From Ginglymostoma cirratum (taxonomy: Eukaryota), in NCBI GenBank assembly GCA_024137785.1, contig JAHRHZ010000133.1:67070245-67134244 (forward strand): 64,000 nucleotides of DNA, in the 5' to 3' direction. Position 1 is the first letter of the stretch; the number at the start of each line of letters is the position of its first letter. The notes under the pieces are model-generated. The model saw only the letters and a list, made by a program, of their open reading frames with translations. It ran no database searches and had not been told where the DNA came from. Shown in pieces: positions 626-62,469 of the stretch. The translations under genes were made by a program, and so were the position numbers.

Positions 626-2628
626 TTAACTTCTTTCTGCTTGTTCGATTTTTACGTCGCTTGTCAGCAAATGTTCTCCATGCCATTTTTTCATGTGTTT
701 CTCAAGGGTGCTGTAAACGCTGAAGGGCATTTGACAAATGTCGCACCTGTAAACCTCCTTGCCGATCTGGCCGTGCGTTTTCATGTGGCGCGTCAGCTTG
801 CTGCTCTGGGCGCATGCATAGTTGCAGAGCTCGCATTTGTAAGGCCGTTCGCCGGTATGGCTCCTGCGGTGCACTGTCAAGTTGCTGCAGTTTTTGAACA
901 CTTTGCCGCAGTACTCGCAAGTGTCGCTCCGGCGTCCTTCCTTGGAGCTCGGCCTCCCCGGGCCGGGCCCTCCCATGTGAGGGGTACTGCCGCTGCTGGC
1001 TGTGCCACTGCGGCCCGAGAGTCCCCCATCCAGCATGTCTCCAGGCGGTGTGGAGAACCTCAGGCTGCCGTTCTCCGAGGAGTGCTCAGAGGAAGTGGCA
1101 AAAGGAGATTGTCTAGAGTCGCCGAATCCCAGGAATGGGTCTTTCATGAAGTGCCTTGATGCTGCGTAGCCCACCAGCCATTGAGAGTAAACATTCTCAG
1201 AGGGAATTAAAGGTGCCGAGGACAAGTCCAGGTCTTTCTCCGTTTTAATTCTTTTTGAAGAAGCGACTGACAGAGAGGGACTAGTGATGAGAGGTGGTTT
1301 CCGAGGCAACGTGATAGGGAAAGATTCACCAGGACCAAAGCCTCTTCCGTTCACTGTGCCATCTTCTGGTCGATCCAGTTCGCCTGCGACAGAGTCCTCG
1401 TCTCCAGTGTCTCTCTGACCGTCGGAGGATCGTTTTGAGAAGCTATTACGCTTCTGCTTATCGGTAAGCACGTCACTGTAATGTTGGATTGCACGGAGAC
1501 CTACATTTTCCATGACTTTGCCCAGAACACAGTGCTTTTCATTCACTGGCAGTTTGAAGCCATTCTCTCGGTTGCGACTCAGCTCGGAGTCCATACTGAA
1601 ACTAGACTCGGGCCGGCTTTCATTTTCCAGTTCCTCTTCCTCTTCCTCCTCCTCCTCCTCTTCTTCCTCCTCGTTCTCATTCATTTGACCAGTGTTGAAA
1701 TTGGTTATGTTGGCTTTCAGGCCACATCCCTCCCCGCTTGCATGTTCACTGGTGCCGGGTTCAGGTGAGCTCGTGGTGGACAGCCCATCGTCTGACCTGG
1801 CTGTGACGGAGGCTGACTTGTGCATGTGTGTCTTCATGTGACGTTTCAGCTTGCTGGCCTGGGAGCAGGCGTGGTCGCACAGCTGACACTTGTACGGCTT
1901 CTCCCCCGTGTGGCTACGCCGGTGGACTATCAGATTGCTCTGAAACTTGAAGGTCTTCCCACAGAACTCGCAGGACTTGCTCTTCAACTGTGACTGAGGA
2001 GGAGTTGTGCTGCTGGGGGGCATGGGGGGGAGTGGCGGCGTGCTCAGAAATGGTGACTTGGGGCTGGGTTGGAAGGGCTGAAGCAAGCGATGCATAGGAT
2101 TGTGACGGCTGGGCGACAAGGGCGGAGTAGAGCTGTTGTTCCCTGCTAGTTCTCGGAGCCTCCTGGAGAAGTCCATAGACTGGGATTCGATACCCAGTGG
2201 GTGGTTCAAGCGCATTACTCTGTCAAAGGCACTATGATGCTGAGATACCAAGCCCATTTCATCAGCATTAAGGCGGTCCAGACGATGCGGGTCTAGATGA
2301 TGGCGAGGCGGCGGGCTGAAAATGGGGGGAGTATTGGGGAGACGGCCATCACCAAAGCCCGGGTGTTCCTGAAGTATAGGTCCAGTCATCCGCAGCAGGT
2401 TGAAAGGATTGTTCTCACCGAGAAAAGTAGTAAGGGGGGACTGAGAGATTGGATCTGGTCCCAAGGAGGGGGGAAGGCCAATCCGAGGGGTAAGGGGACT
2501 GTTCGACGGATGCGTTTCCAAGTAAATCCGGAATCCGTGTGTATTCTGTGCATGTTGGAGCAGGAACCAAGCACTCATAAAAGGCTGCTTGCATGTTGTG
2601 CAAATGTAGCTTGAAGGCTCATCTTTAC
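626..2628 (-). CDS. BCL11B: BCL11B (CTIP2) terminal coding exon; C2H2 zinc-finger transcription factor
   Basis: Translation runs (G)[16 protein letters not shown]...[20 protein letters not shown]. It has a single finger, a finger pair ([28 protein letters not shown]), a poly-E tract and a C-terminal finger triplet. The KIEQAERS ending matches BCL11B rather than BCL11A. Phase-1 acceptor ttttcttgcag|GTAAAGAT; stop TAA at 628-626. Confidence 0.97.
1633..1677 (-). repeat. GAR triplet repeat encoding the poly-Glu tract
   Basis: (tcc/ttc)n on the plus strand; the translation contains a long E run. Confidence 0.9.
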
Positions 2629-10075: not shown

Positions 10076-11589
10076 GGTAATGTCTATACCTCTTGGCCAG
10101 GTCTAGGTTCAAGTCTCACCTATGCCAGAGGTGTCACCTAACATGTCAGAACTGCAGTTAGTATAGTTCAAAAGATCTATACTGAATGTACAATATTCTG
10201 ACACAACTGGGGAAGAGGTAAGAACATGCATTTATACAGTAGCTTTCATTCCCCACTAATTTTCTGCAACTAGCAAAATTTGCTTATTCATGCCTTCATC
10301 AGAAATTAATAAATCCATTTCTCAAACTTCCCAGGTTCTGCAGAAATACCAGGCATCCGAGCACTTATGGTTTCATATTCAGACTTCCATCATTTGTAAA
10401 TCATTATTACTGACAAAAATAATTCTTCTCTGAAAGCAAATCAAACAGCAATGACTGAATGGCCATTATTTGCAACAACAGTGGAATGTCAACTCAAGTG
10501 GCTCAATTAAGAAAGAAAGGGATGTGGTGATACAGTCAAAATTCCAATGATGGATAAAAGAAAACTTTTCAAATTCTCTTGCTTCAAAAGATCTAAGAAA
10601 TTCTGTACAGTGAACTATGAAATGCTTTACTTTTCATCAATGTCCATTCTGAAATGACATCTTACTCGTCCGATTCTCTATATTTAAGAACAGCTAGTTT
10701 CAGACCACAGTGAGCCCTGTACAATTTCCTCTGGTCTCACATGTCGAGGCTGGAGCCTGTGTATGCAGAATGCAATGTCCGGATGTACGGTCTCTGTGGT
10801 TGCTTCCACCCTGAAACCTGACTGCCACTGTACTTTACTCTTAACAATTCTTCATGAGCTGATATTGGATACTAAGAACAAAGTATGGAAATGGGGAGGG
10901 GTAAGATTACAATCACTCTAGAATCTCTGCCAAGACCAACACCCTCTTGATCAGACTGTCCCCTGTGTGAAGTTCCATCCAACTTCTCGGCCTGTTCCCT
11001 TTTTTGGTCCTAAAATGACTACACCTAGACAACAAACACCAGGTTATGACCACCAGAAGACAGCCTGGGGATAAAAACTTGAAATGTTTCAATACTCCAA
11101 CACCAAACTTATATGTGCTTCGTTCACCTTGATTTTTTTTAAAGGCACTGATTGAATGTAGGCAGTATCTACCTTCAGTACATCGTCAATGAACGTCAAC
11201 AGAAAATCACTGCCATCACTGGCCCAGTCCTCACAAGATATTTAGGCACTTCCACTTTCAGATCCAAAGCAGACTAAATCTCTGTAGGGATGGAAAGTAT
11301 GTCCTGGATCACTGACCCGGGAGCCTCACGTAGGGCTCAATGTCTACATATATTAAAAGCCAAATCTCCCGGATCAGTCACTTCATCAACACTGGATCAG
11401 AGCAATGGAGCTCAGTGCACTGCTGACAAGTTGGACAGGCACTTGTGGAATCCTCAAGAAAATCCACTTGTGGAATGTGAGTACTGGCAGCAAGACCTCG
11501 TTTCTCTGGAAGGTGGCTGTGGACCTTCTTGAACAGTTGGCACTGGTTTAAGAAAACTGAAGAATCGATTTCAGACAGCAGTTTCAAGT

Positions 11590-12208
11590 TAACAAGGTGT
11601 GGGGCTGGATGAACACAGCAGGCCAAGCAGCATCATAGGAGCAGGAAAGCTTGACGTTTCGGGCCTAGACCCTTNNNNNNNNNNNNNNNNNNNNNNNNNN
11701 NNNNNNNNNNNNNNNNNNNNNNNNNNNNNNNNNNNNNNNNNNNNNNNNNNNNNNNNNNNNNNNNNNNNNNNNNNNNNNNNNNNNNNNNNNNNNNNNNNNN
11801 NNNNNNNNNNNNNNNNNNNNNNNNNNNNNNNNNNNNNNNNNNNNNNNNNNNNNNNNNNNNNNNNNNNNNNNNNNNNNNNNNNNNNNNNNNNNNNNNNNNN
11901 NNNNNNNNNNNNNNNNNNNNNNNNNNNNNNNNNNNNNNNNNNNNNNNNNNNNNNNNNNNNNNNNNNNNNNNNNNNNNNNNNNNNNNNNNNNNNNNNNNNN
12001 NNNNNNNNNNNNNNNNNNNNNNNNNNNNNNNNNNNNNNNNNNNNNNNNNNNNNNNNNNNNNNNNNNNNNNNNNNTTTCTGATGAAGGGTCTAGGCCCGAA
12101 ACGTCAAGCTTTCCTGCTCCTATGATGCTGCTTGGCCTGCTGTGTTCATCCAGCCCCACACCTTGTTATCTCGGATTCTCCAGATTCTGCAGTACCTTTT
12201 ATCTCTGA
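11590..12208 (+). mobile_element. Penelope-like insertion with inverted 5' arm around a 400-N gap; 17-bp TSD
   Basis: 11590-11674 is the reverse complement of 12084-12168. TSD agcagtttcaagttaac at 11577-11593 and 12209-12225. Confidence 0.85.
12075..12108 (+). ncRNA. Minimal type-I hammerhead ribozyme motif (Penelope-associated)
   Basis: ttt CTGATGA a gggt-ctag-gccc GAAA cGTC aag: core boxes, helix II and vestigial palindromic (acgt) helix III. Predicted cut after C12105. Confidence 0.75.
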
Positions 12209-13022
12209 AGCAGTTTCAAGTTAACCACTTAGGTGCGAGCCCAGAGGCCAGACTGATTACAGGGAACAGGTTTCCTTCCCTAAAGACATGTGCAAACCAA
12301 TTTTAATTTTAGCGCTATCGGATAGCCTTATGGTCATTACGGCTTTTCAAAACTGAACCTAACTTCTCAAAGTACCACAATAGGATCTGAATGCACGTTC
12401 TCTGCATTATTAAAACATGTCTCCGCTTTACTAGTCCTATCCAATAAAATAACCATCATACACCAAGTAACATGACACAAGAATTTTCAAACAACTGATA
12501 ACTGAGGCAGGTGTCTGGGAGTTTTCAGACTGTTGACAAGAACGATTAACACATCGCTTGGTTTCAATTTACCAATATGCCTCACTTGGGCCAATTTACT
12601 CCACAGATTTTAAAACTTTGAAGAGTTACAACATTATCCAAGTTGCCTACCAGATACAATCATGACGTTGAAACAGGGAAGAGGCTTTTGATTCAGTATG
12701 CCTTTGTGATTGCTACTGTGTGTGCGCGCGCACGCATGCATGGGTTTGCCCATTCGTGTGCTGGGAAAAGCAATTCAGCAACATGTTCAGAATTGGCCAC
12801 TTATGTTTTCAGTGCCCAGTGCAGCTGTTTCCTCGGATGCACAAATTAAAATACAGCCAGTGTGAAGGCCTTGCATATGACTTCAAACCAACCGTAAAGC
12901 CTGAATCATGCACATTAAACAGGAGAAGCCTAATGATGCATTCTGAAGTGCAATGGTACAAATAATGGATGTAAAACCCTACTGGATTCACAGGGGATCA
13001 GGCCAGATGAGGAAAGGGTTAA

Positions 13023-38595: not shown

Positions 38596-38702
38596 ATTTA
38601 AAATAAGGTCAATGCAACTCACGAGCAAACAGAATAAGTGCTTGCTTAACATTCTTAATTGGTTCCTGGAAAACTCAACATTATATGAAACATTATATGA
38701 AA

Positions 38703-38840
38703 TATCATTTCTGATGAAGGGTCTAGGCCTGAAACGTCAAGTTTTCCTGCTCCTATGATGCTGCTTGGCCTGCTGTGTGTTCATCCAGCCCCACGCCTTG
38801 TTATCTCGGATTCTCCAGCATCTGCAGTACCTTTTATCTC
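38703..38840 (+). mobile_element. Young short Penelope-like copy with hammerhead motif (38707-38742); 12-bp TSD
   Basis: attt CTGATGA agggtctaggcct GAAA cGTC aagt; near-identical to 12075-12208. Flanked by cattatatgaaa. Confidence 0.85.
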
Positions 38841-55108: not shown

Positions 55109-55640
55109 TGAGATGTTACACTTACAGGAGGATTCTGTCAGCACCATTTCAAAGAAGACCAGAGGATTTCTCCTATGCAATTTTATTCCTCAAACCAAGA
55201 CTACCAATGCAGATAATCCGGTCATTACTGGTTGTGGACCTTGCTTATATACAAACTGCCTACATTTAGGTAAACTGTTCAACATTTAAAAACTAAACAC
55301 ATTTCAAAAGTACTTGATTGTCTGAGATTACAGCGAGAGATATTCTGAGATTGTGAACAGTCTTAGAGGATCTTCAAGTCCATTGGCAAAAAATACACAC
55401 AGACTAAAATAGATTATTTATTGTTTGCCATAGAGCTTATATCTCCAAACTAAAAGTATCCACCTGAGTACTGGCTTGGCTTGTCTTTATATACACATCA
55501 AAGTGTAATTAACTAAATTAATACCCATTTAGCTTATTACTAGGCATTTACTATCTATCAACAGAACCTATTAGACACTAACTGACGGTACTGTCTAAAT
55601 CATGTGCAAAAAGTCATGGATACACAGCAATTTCAACAGT

Positions 55641-56226
55641 ATAACAAGGTGTAGAGCTGGATGAACACAGCAGGCCAAGCAGCATCAGAGGAGCAGGAAA
55701 GCTGACGTTTNNNNNNNNNNNNNNNNNNNNNNNNNNNNNNNNNNNNNNNNNNNNNNNNNNNNNNNNNNNNNNNNNNNNNNNNNNNNNNNNNNNNNNNNNN
55801 NNNNNNNNNNNNNNNNNNNNNNNNNNNNNNNNNNNNNNNNNNNNNNNNNNNNNNNNNNNNNNNNNNNNNNNNNNNNNNNNNNNNNNNNNNNNNNNNNNNN
55901 NNNNNNNNNNNNNNNNNNNNNNNNNNNNNNNNNNNNNNNNNNNNNNNNNNNNNNNNNNNNNNNNNNNNNNNNNNNNNNNNNNNNNNNNNNNNNNNNNNNN
56001 NNNNNNNNNNNNNNNNNNNNNNNNNNNNNNNNNNNNNNNNNNNNNNNNNNNNNNNNNNNNNNNNNNNNNNNNNNNNNNNNNNNNNNNNNNNNNNNNNNNN
56101 NNNNNNNNNNAGGCCCAAAACGTCAGCTTTCCTGCTCCTCTGATGCTGCTTGGCCTGCTGTGTTCATCCAGCTCTACACCTTGTCATCTCAGATTCTCCA
56201 GCATCTGCAGTTCCTACTATCTCTGA
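55641..56226 (+). mobile_element. Penelope-like insertion with inverted 5' arm around a 400-N gap; ~17-bp TSD
   Basis: 55641-55710 is the reverse complement of ~56118-56187. TSD a(g/a)caatttcaa(c/t)agtat at 55626-55642 and 56227-56243. Confidence 0.82.
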
Positions 56227-56619
56227 AACAATTTCAATAGTATTCTTTGCGTAACCTTTCATCCCCTCGCCCCATGTGATTAGAGAAAGATGGGCACGAC
56301 CGAAGGAGTGTATTTGTGAGAAGATTTTCTTTTAAACGTTGCAGAGTAAGGTGGAGCCACTTCAGCTTCACACCAAACCGCAAGTGTGCTTCTGACTCGT
56401 TGACTGCTTACACTATCTCGCCCCAGAGTGGATAATTACCGGTTTCTATATTGAAATGTTAGTCATAATTTTTACTATGTGTATGATTCAAATTTATATT
56501 GACAAATGTGCTCAATGTCCCTAGACTGGTAAGGAGTATGAGCACAGCTAGTATGCTACTAATCCTGCTGTCTTTCTTACCCCTACCTTGATTCAAGGTG
56601 CTCTGCTTGGTGCAACAAG

Positions 56620-60309: not shown

Positions 60310-60422
60310 CCCGAAACGTCAAGTTTTCCTGCTCCTGTGATGCTGTTTGACCTGCTGTGTTCATCCAGCCCCATGCTTGTTATCTCGGATTCTCCAGCAT
60401 CTGCAGTACCTTTTATCTCTGA
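60310..60422 (+). mobile_element. Short Penelope-like copy truncated inside hammerhead helix II
   Basis: cccgaaacgtcaagttttcctgctcc...gcagtaccttttatctctga; same family as 38703-38840. No long TSD. Confidence 0.8.
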
Positions 60423-60738
60423 TACCATTCTTGTGAATTGTTTCTGCACTCTCCCTTAAGCCTTCACACCCTTCCTGAAGTGGAGTATGCAGAATTAGAC
60501 ATTACTCCAGATGAAGATGAAGCGGTGTTATATAAAGGCTCACAGTAACCTTCTTAATATTATACTCTACGGTACCGTTTATAAAGCCCACGTATACACA
60601 GTGCTCCCTTTAGAAATGCACCTTTTACTTTATATTGCAACTCCTCATTCATCCTATCACAAGTTATTATTACTGTGTTAAAATTCAAGTGCCATGGATT
60701 TGCACATTCCACCAGCCTGTCTATCTCCTCTTGAAGTC

Positions 60739-60941
60739 CAGGCTGAGGTTAGCTTGAATGGCTAGTTTATCATGCAGTAATGCTGACTGTGTGGGTTCAG
60801 TTCCTGCATCGACTGTGGTTACCGTGAAGAACTCTCGTTTCCAACCTTTCCTCTTGTCTGAGGCATGGAGACCATCAGGTTAAACCATCAGCAATACAGA
60901 GAGAGCAGCCTTATGGTCTGTGAGGATTATAGTGACTTTAA
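60739..60941 (+). mobile_element. tRNA-derived SINE nested in CR1
   Basis: Box A-like ttagcttgaatgg, box B-like gggttcagttcc and tail gagagcagccttatggtctg...gtgacttta. Confidence 0.6.
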
Positions 60942-60981
60942 TGTTGAGGTTGGTTGGCTCGCCGAGTTTGTTTGTTGTTCG

Positions 60982-61021
60982 GCAGACGTTTCGTTACCGT
61001 GCTTGGTAACATCCTCAGTGC
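60982..61021 (-). ncRNA. Minimal type-I hammerhead motif, sense to BCL11B pre-mRNA
   Basis: Mirror copy: gca CTGAGGA t gttacc-aagcac-ggtaac GAAA cGTC tgc. Confidence 0.78.
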
Positions 61022-61277
61022 AGCCTCTGATGAAGCGTCGGTGTATTTTCCTGCCTGGTTTTTAAACTCTGGGGTCCGGTGCGATGGATTGCCTCACTTC
61101 CGGGTTTCCTCTGTAGTGGAATGTATATGGGGTTGAGGTCAATGTGTTTATTAATAGCTTGACCTCAACCCCATATACATTCCACTACGGAGGAAACCCG
61201 GAAGTGAGGCAATCCATCGCACCGGACCCCAGAGTTTAAAAACCAGGCAGGAAAATACACCGACGCTTCATCAGAGG

Positions 61278-61321
61278 CTGCACTGAGGATGTTACCAAGC
61301 ACGGTAACGAAACGTCTGTGG
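61278..61321 (+). ncRNA. Minimal type-I hammerhead ribozyme motif
   Basis: ctgca CTGAGGA t gttacc-aagcac-ggtaac GAAA cGTC tgtgg: 5-bp helix I, 6-bp helix II, predicted cut after C61316. Confidence 0.8.
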
Positions 61322-62469
61322 AACACCAAACCAGCTCGGCGAGCCAACCAACCTCAACACCCACAACCCGAGCTACAGATCTACTCCAAAACCTTAGTGA
61401 CTTGAACCGCTATACTCCTTACAGTTCATAATATTTCTACATTTTTTGTCACCTGGAAAATTCTGACATGGTGCTACATTCACCCGAGTTGAGGTCATTA
61501 ACATAAATCACAAAAGGCAGCTATCCTAATACTGATGCCTGGGAGAACCCCTCTATTTACTTTGCCTTTTCCGAAAAAAGCCATTTACCACTACTCTTCT
61601 TACCTGTCACTCAGCCAACTTCATATCTATGCTGCCATTGTCTCACATTTCACAGGCTTCCACTCTGCTAGTAAATCTATTCTGTAACGCGTTTGCTAAA
61701 CACTTTAAGAAGTCTATATATGCATATCAATATAAAAGTGTTGCCCTCATCAACCCTCTGTTACCTCAGTTAACTTAGTTAAACGTAATTTGCCTTCAGC
61801 AAATTAGCGTCAGCTTTTCTAATTTCCTTATCCAAGTTCCCAAAGTCAATCTCTGTCAATTTTTGGCCCATCCAGTATCACAATCACCTCTTCTTTCACA
61901 AGACTTCTGGCAGTATTTTCTTCCTTGGCAAAGACAGATACAAAGTGCTTCTTTAGTACATCAATCATGACCTCTACCTCCATGCAGAGCTCCCCTTTCT
62001 GATCCCTAATTGGACCCATCACTACTTTATGACTGTAGAAAATCCTTAGGTGCCTTTAAAAACTCTGAATTTATGTTAGCTGTCAGATATTTTTCTCCCA
62101 TATTCGTTGCTTCTATCTTACTTTGTCACTCCCCTTCTGAAATTCTGACATTCAGACTGGTTGACTTGTATTACCAAACTGACATTTGTCATATACAATC
62201 TTTTTCTGCTTTACCTTAGTCTCTATTTCTTTTGTCAATCAGACAGCTCTGGCTTTGCTTGTCCCATCTAACCCAGCCATGGGAAAGTACCACAACAATA
62301 TGTTTTAAAGGCAGTGCAATGGTCTATTACAGTTTGCCTGTCAATCTCAATTTAGCTGGTATAGATTTGTTCTCAACCCACGAAAACTGCCAATGTTCTA
62401 ATTATTACTTTTACACTATCTGCATAAATTTATTATTATGCAGTATGCTGACCACTGTGTATTGGACAG

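Follow-up and report, generated by a model that had tools for sequence, protein, structure and literature searches.

Two 5′-truncated Penelope-like ends, very probably inserted head to head, form a hammerhead-bearing palindrome in a likely BCL11B intron of Ginglymostoma cirratum

In insertions of endonuclease-bearing (EN+) Penelope-like elements (PLEs), as described for Pen2a_Av (PMC3846280) and in PMC8557442, an inverted, 5′-truncated copy lies head to head with its partner between short target-site duplications (TSDs), a tail of 30–40 nt stands at one end only, and the pseudo-LTR (pLTR) holds the first codons of the open reading frame (ORF). Pen2a_Av itself has an inverted pLTR, a 31-bp tail and a 9-bp TSD (PMC3846280), while PMC8557442 gives a general scheme of the inverted pLTR layout with optional tail and TSD, and inverted repeats have been described for D. 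virilis Penelope (PMC2377424). Metazoan PLEs also carry minimal hammerhead ribozymes (min-HHRs) with an extra base between positions 9 and 10.1, a long helix II and a short helix I of 4–5 bp; pairs of them, 100–700 bp apart on opposite strands, have already been reported (PMC4209133). In PAc, a Poseidon element of Anolis carolinensis, the ATG starts stem II, core nucleotides C3 and G8 precede it, and the element cuts and extends both target strands in vitro (PMC11167929). Non-LTR retrozymes are short hammerhead-bearing derivatives of PLE pLTRs (bioRxiv 10.64898/2026.07.22.740005). Double-stranded RNA from inverted repeats is hyper-edited by ADAR, with an excess of A-to-G changes, in lizard Penelope, whose repeats are heavily edited, and in a palindromic frog Harbinger (PMC5625713).

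We analysed a 64,000-nucleotide stretch of Ginglymostoma cirratum DNA (GCA_024137785.1, contig JAHRHZ010000133.1; hereafter the window, in whose coordinates all positions are given) that contains a 418-base palindrome (Table 1). The palindrome is a real, ordinary Penelope/Poseidon-like insertion scar whose layout has already been published. It very probably consists of two 5′-truncated Penelope/Poseidon-like ends, set head to head between a 12-bp duplication, which likely arose in one insertion event and are likely inert as ribozymes. The head-to-head inverted copy, the short putative TSD, the tail at one end only and the pLTR with first ORF codons are all as in EN+ insertions; the ORF body, in contrast, is absent here, the copies measure only about 220–240 nt, the TSD has 12 bp and the site is in a vertebrate, probably within an intron.

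Table 1. Features of the palindromic insertion and its host gene in the window
Feature	Position	Strand	Basis or remark
Last coding exon of BCL11B	626..2628	-	Splice acceptor ~2628
Left TSD (putative), 12 bp	60930..60941		Direct repeat
Left copy: inverted, 5′-truncated, tail-less PLE end, 217 nt (201-nt arm + 16-nt "spacer")	60942..61158	-	In-frame translation through spacer; family reads
Minimal type I hammerhead, BCL11B-sense	60980..61023	-	Core at -61018; predicted cut after 60985; helix I U-C mismatch
Hairpin loop (extra 5′ bases of left copy)	61143..61158	-	Translation frame; family reads
Right copy: 5′-truncated PLE end with tail, 236 nt	61159..61394	+	Alignment of arms; family read ends
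3′ end of PLE ORF (putative GIY-YIG endonuclease C-terminus)	61161..61286	+	Peptide match; frame stops at the UGA of the hammerhead core
Minimal type I hammerhead, antisense to BCL11B	61278..61321	+	Core at +61283; predicted cut after 61316; helix I 5 bp, two G-U
Likely PLE ORF start (ATG at stem II start, 35 open codons through tail)	61289..61393	+	Geometry as PAc; no Pfam match
One-sided tail, 35 nt, AC-rich	61360..61394	+	Family 3′ ends pile at 61357/61359 and 61396/61397
Right TSD (putative)	61395..61406		1 mismatch to left repeat

The arms (60942–61142 and 61159–61359, 201 nt each) are 97% complementary, differ by six mismatches and stand 16 nt apart. Their longest exact stem has 129 bp, against 15–20 in 20 of 20 Markov controls, and the minus-strand RNA of the palindrome has a predicted fold of −402.8 kcal/mol (z −44.5). 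Alignment and controls bear out the first-pass annotation of this DNA, which had described 201-nt inverted arms with six mismatches. The size it gave for the 16-nt gap between them was right as well, but its reading of the gap as a spacer was not, and it had missed the tail at 61360–61394, present on the right only. On the minus strand the reading frame of these 16 nt is continuous with that of the left arm, and their reverse complement precedes 61159 in 144 family reads, so the segment is no neutral spacer and the two copies meet head to head. The loop contains an 8-nt palindrome (61149–61156). Folded alone, the 35-nt tail gave no predicted stem-loop, whereas the PAc tail is described as one (PMC11167929). 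The flanking TSD named by the annotation is present at both ends as a 12-bp repeat with one mismatch; it is a putative duplication, with no empty allele among the contigs and reads listed for the locus. The proposed inverted pseudo-LTR layout agrees with the one-sided tail, the inverted truncated copy and the published Pen2a_Av scheme.

A 47-aa frame in the arm terminates at the UGA of the hammerhead core. An exhaustive protein search with the arm peptide gave four matches, P0122 and three repetitive junk sequences; the match to the C-terminus of P0122 has 71% identity over the last 34 aa (E 3.4e-5). P0121, P0123 and P0124 were rejected as relatives, being repetitive junk whose Pfam matches had no or few passing stretches. 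The 47-aa peptide had no match by word-index protein search, Pfam or Atlas, and Pfam gave no GIY-YIG or RT match for the arm peptides, P0122, P0125 or P0126. The nearest Atlas clusters of P0122 are GIY-YIG (0.93), and P0122 has two cysteines between its GIY-like and YIG motifs, which is described as a PLE endonuclease signature (CCHH; PMC8557442). Judged through this relative, the arms appear to encode the C-terminus of a PLE GIY-YIG endonuclease. P0125, a longer relative of P0122 with a precomputed PF26215 annotation, has no CxxC linker ahead of the endonuclease; by eye, we take some of its motifs to be RT-end-like. The window contains no RT domain, this copy being truncated, so the clade assignment rests on relatives: the CX2-5CxxC finger, a criterion from PMC8557442, is absent from the RT-EN linker of both P0125 and P0126, which points to the Penelope/Poseidon clade. 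P0126 is a zebra-shark protein named as a ZSWIM7 isoform that contains PLE RT-end and endonuclease sequence, and its naming is probably a gene-model error or an exonisation.

The end of the ORF, the hammerhead and the start of the ORF are joined in the arm, a feature of pLTRs. As in PAc, the ATG starts stem II, with C3 and G8 of the core before it; the predicted cut lies 28 nt downstream of the ATG, against 26 nt in PAc, and the likeness extends to an AC-rich tail between two preferred ends, here at +71 and +106 from the ATG (PMC11167929). The tail ends at +106, where reverse transcription in PAc starts near +111–118, a likeness drawn from the described geometry. Together with the endonuclease peptide match and the dispersed family described below, the pLTR layout supports the Penelope-like origin suggested at first pass.

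Six of 24 sequencing runs were mapped, RNA run X21 at ~24% of its reads; run X22 contributed no mapped reads. To the right half mapped 2142 X21 RNA reads, 1810 of them less than 95% alike. Loose ends with mixed flanks in X21 lie at 61357/61359 (127 + 90 reads) and at 61396/61397 (188 + 259), and the outer ends of both copies here coincide with these two preferred 3′ ends of the family. Organisms B and C likewise have the family in abundance, although summed contig depth does not equal copy number, and its flanks are mixed in A, B and C alike; it is dispersed and multi-copy, the window itself containing no second copy. Joints between opposite strands occur in family reads at 61164/61322, 61242/61309 and 61322/61344 and are other fold-backs. 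The last of these is seen in 22 X21 reads that link 61322 to 61344 across strands, while 56 have loose ends before 61322; it is an expressed fold-back copy elsewhere, truncated 6 nt beyond the predicted cut site. Loose ends common to all four runs at 61036–61037 suggest a subfamily with a different upstream part, and a truncation hot spot is suggested at 61064, where 27 contigs of organism C have mixed loose ends.

A second hammerhead-bearing family was observed in the window. Its elements at 11577–12227 and 55628–56243 have inverted arms, a one-sided tail of ~35 nt, TSD-like repeats of 19 and 15 bp, respectively, with one mismatch each, and centres that read N. Solo copies lie at 38679–38858 (hammerhead core at 38711, TSD-like repeat of 15–18 bp) and at 60310–60419, the latter without the 5′ half of the core and 0.5 kb from the palindrome.

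The ORF at 626–2689 on the minus strand shares 82% identity with lungfish and platypus BCL11B, and 75–81% with that of gar, teleosts and mammals. Searching with 8 of 120 BCL11B relatives (tblastn; best E 1.3), we found no upstream exon beyond 2.8 kb in the window, and the insertion is 58 kb from the nearest BCL11B exon found. The earlier placement in a BCL11B intron is thus supported by homology as regards the gene; since the window contains only the last exon, we infer the intron, as the likely setting. BCL11B being on the minus strand, its pre-mRNA would bear the left-arm hammerhead motif. The insertion sits at the end of an older repeat (60786–60941), where X9 depth rises up to ~300-fold above the unique flank; the window departs from the X9 majority at many sites of this repeat, which may resemble a SINE 3′ tail.

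Each arm holds a CUGAGGA / helix II / GAAA / GUC core with a 6-bp helix II and a loop-less palindromic helix III. The core nucleotides, the extra base after A9, G10.1–C11.1 and the palindromic 15.2–16.2 are present in both arms, in keeping with the annotated minimal hammerheads with palindromic helix III and with the min-HHRs of metazoan PLEs. Relative to the latter (PMC4209133), helix II here has 6 bp, helix I is damaged in both arms, and the motifs are known from their sequence. Helix I of the left arm has 3 bp, a mismatch and then 1 bp; that of the right arm has 5 bp including two G-U pairs. The left-arm U-C mismatch is an allele at 60981 found in at most ~2% of family reads (11/549), and the second G-U pair of the right arm stems from a C-to-T change at 61319, where 79% of family reads have C. 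Of the "two complete hammerheads" first claimed, the two intact cores, one per strand, therefore stand and the completeness does not. The cores were found by motif, but Rfam gave no match at gathering score over the palindrome, hammerhead included; by E-value there were 15 matches (14 miRNA precursor models and one xrRNA), all sub-threshold. A miRNA precursor was rejected as a candidate, its Rfam scores being under the family gathering thresholds. In place of the A-C of the window, the family variants A>C (61297) and C>G or C>T (61302) would give helix II a seventh pair (C-G or A-U).

Cleavage of BCL11B pre-mRNA by the sense motif is predicted to be unlikely. Forcing the hammerhead fold would cost a predicted 68–78 kcal/mol in nascent or full RNA, against 3–5 for isolated 61-mers, and the sense motif lies within the 129-bp perfect duplex. 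The head-to-head pair puts this motif on the 3′ arm, so that it is transcribed after its complement, and with a single motif per strand the element can supply no cis dimer. Single min-HHRs showed no cleavage in the published assays of PMC4209133, and the PAc hammerhead is described as requiring protein (PMC11167929). X21 read starts and ends showed no pile-up, and a fragmented poly(A) library would hardly reveal a ribozyme cut. The proposal of a latent self-cleaving motif in the host pre-mRNA accordingly finds no support, with the sense helix I broken, the motif in duplex, its complement made first and no dimer partner on the same strand; the monomer put forward for testing, with a cut after C61316, is antisense to BCL11B and so not in its pre-mRNA.

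The dsRNA proposal fared better, although at the level of the family and not of the locus. A>G and T>C changes account for 47 of 107 listed places in X21 RNA, against 9 of 49 in X1 contigs and 7 of 45 in X2 contigs (Fisher P 0.002 and 0.0008, respectively), a comparison between different individuals with no matched DNA, in which contigs lose rare variants and the type of X1 and X2 is uncertain. Among displayed minor sites, the ratio of RNA to contig frequency has a median of 8.6 at 11 A>G/T>C sites and is at most 2.4 at 16 others (from 40 of 108 rows, two flank rows and majority sites excluded). The family thus bears an ADAR signature in one RNA run, resembling in its A-to-G excess and inverted-repeat dsRNA the lizard and frog systems but, unlike them, observed at family level only (PMC5625713). 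The unique flanks of the insertion have almost no X21 reads, so editing is seen for the family and not for this locus, whose hairpin, in a spliced-out intron, is likely an ADAR substrate.

The insertion is moderately young. Its CpG observed/expected ratio is 0.80, against 0.30 for the window, in line with the retained CpGs on which the annotation had based a young age; its age can be only moderate, because 7 and 9 of the 201 sites of the arms differ from the family majority and the two TSD copies are mismatched at one position. The differences are unevenly distributed. About four to five family-rare alleles are common to both arms, all within the inner 100 nt, whereas other rare alleles belong to one arm (right 61319 and 61326; left 60967, 60969, 60981 and 61112). 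A 16-nt stretch close to the outer end contains five of the six arm-specific differences (P 0.0006 for six events, 0.006 for five). The inner part has five shared changes and one arm-specific change, the outer part none and five (Fisher P 0.015, or 0.048 with linked or polymorphic sites merged; the boundary is post hoc). A chimeric origin of the arms, from two subfamilies meeting at the cleavage site, was considered and rejected, each arm having its own rare alleles.

Homogenisation between arms is known for large sex-chromosome palindromes. We raise, as a speculative idea, that short Penelope palindromes of this genome, too, may have one arm corrected from its partner: hairpin- or cruciform-driven conversion would preserve the identity of the inner 160 bp, in which both hammerhead cores lie, and the outer 40 bp would drift; the clustering also fits source-specific alleles with clustered mutation, or assembly collapse. 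We found no study of arm homogenisation in PLE palindromes in a literature search with most subscription journals outside its coverage. If it did occur, such scars would persist as near-perfect dsRNA and as substrates of ADAR and seem younger than they are, their ribozyme cores would be matched without selection, and arm identity would be useless for dating such insertions.

As to origin, we lean towards two-ended priming as the inferred mechanism. The element's endonuclease would cut both target strands with a 12-nt stagger, each 3′ end would prime reverse transcription at one of the family's start points (+106 or +71 from the ATG), and both cDNAs would halt early, at 236 and 217 nt, and then be joined head to head; whichever strand is transcribed, the hammerhead would be made after its full complement and is predicted to zip into the hairpin. 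The cutting and extension of both target strands by PAc provide a precedent (PMC11167929). The main rival, which we consider possible but clearly less probable, is that one cDNA folded back and primed itself to give the mirror half (Arkhipova et al. 2013), after which recombination between the arms may have inverted the interior. Palindromes at head-to-head junctions have been proposed as sites of self-priming (PMC3846280), the loop has an 8-nt palindrome, and copying of one arm from its partner would be expected to leave the rare alleles common to both, although these also fit a single source locus. Fold-back does not by itself place both outer ends at the family's two preferred 3′ ends, the junction lacks clear microhomology, and the loop has the wrong orientation for folding back a tailed cDNA, while a tail-less arm cannot template a tail; the one-sided tail and the loop orientation together require an extra step. 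Were the interior flipped later, the loop would be reversed and the argument from its orientation undone, and fold-back stays a rival to two-ended priming.

It is improbable, though of more concern than the functional readings below, that assembly or polishing artefacts partly account for the near-identity of the arms, the ends being real and the middle collapsed to one consensus. None of the six mismatches is more than 41 nt from unique sequence (post hoc P ~0.005), and they surround the 129-bp perfect core; the two similar elements in the window have N centres, and the palindrome interior is in none of the listed contigs (X1, X2). However, collapse is unlikely so close to the unique loop as the shared rare alleles at 61163 and 61167, which are 5 and 9 nt away from it, two X21 reads continue beyond the loop's first base, two map at 99% or more, and opposite-strand joints are present in family reads. 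Contigs from two studies, moreover, touch both outer junctions: one from X1 ends 6 nt into the tail, at the right junction, and one from X2 (record 9, 60557–60949) is exact over the left flank and 8 nt of the arm. The latter continues for 47 unaligned letters, which could be a variant allele, a hairpin-skipping artefact or a deletion. Far less probable is a role as regulatory RNA in BCL11B pre-mRNA, whether self-cleaving, perhaps once ADAR loosens the duplex, or as a source of small RNAs. The intact cores of both arms and the A-to-I signature in family RNA would favour it; the predicted duplex penalty of ~70 kcal/mol, the mismatched sense helix I, the missing dimer partner, the drift of both arms from the family, helix I included, the 58 kb to the nearest exon found and the near-absence of X21 reads in the unique flanks speak against it. 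We give equally little weight to the palindrome being the mobile unit itself, as a MITE-like or retrozyme-like double-hammerhead element. It does have its own flanking TSD, and hammerhead-bearing non-autonomous PLE derivatives are known in vertebrates, but retrozymes are described as tandem, head to tail (bioRxiv 10.64898/2026.07.22.740005), and here there is a single inverted pair with tail and TSD. Family reads also run upstream into ORF sequence, the opposite-strand joints differ in place, and the window has no second copy of the family.

The single locus matters little: it is one among many scars of a known class and unlikely to be a gene switch. Because its outer ends coincide with the two 3′ ends that the family prefers, two-ended priming could be tested in vitro with the PAc system. 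In a head-to-head pair the hammerhead always follows its complement, a simple reason why intron insertions could be tolerated, and in this animal ADAR apparently targets the family.
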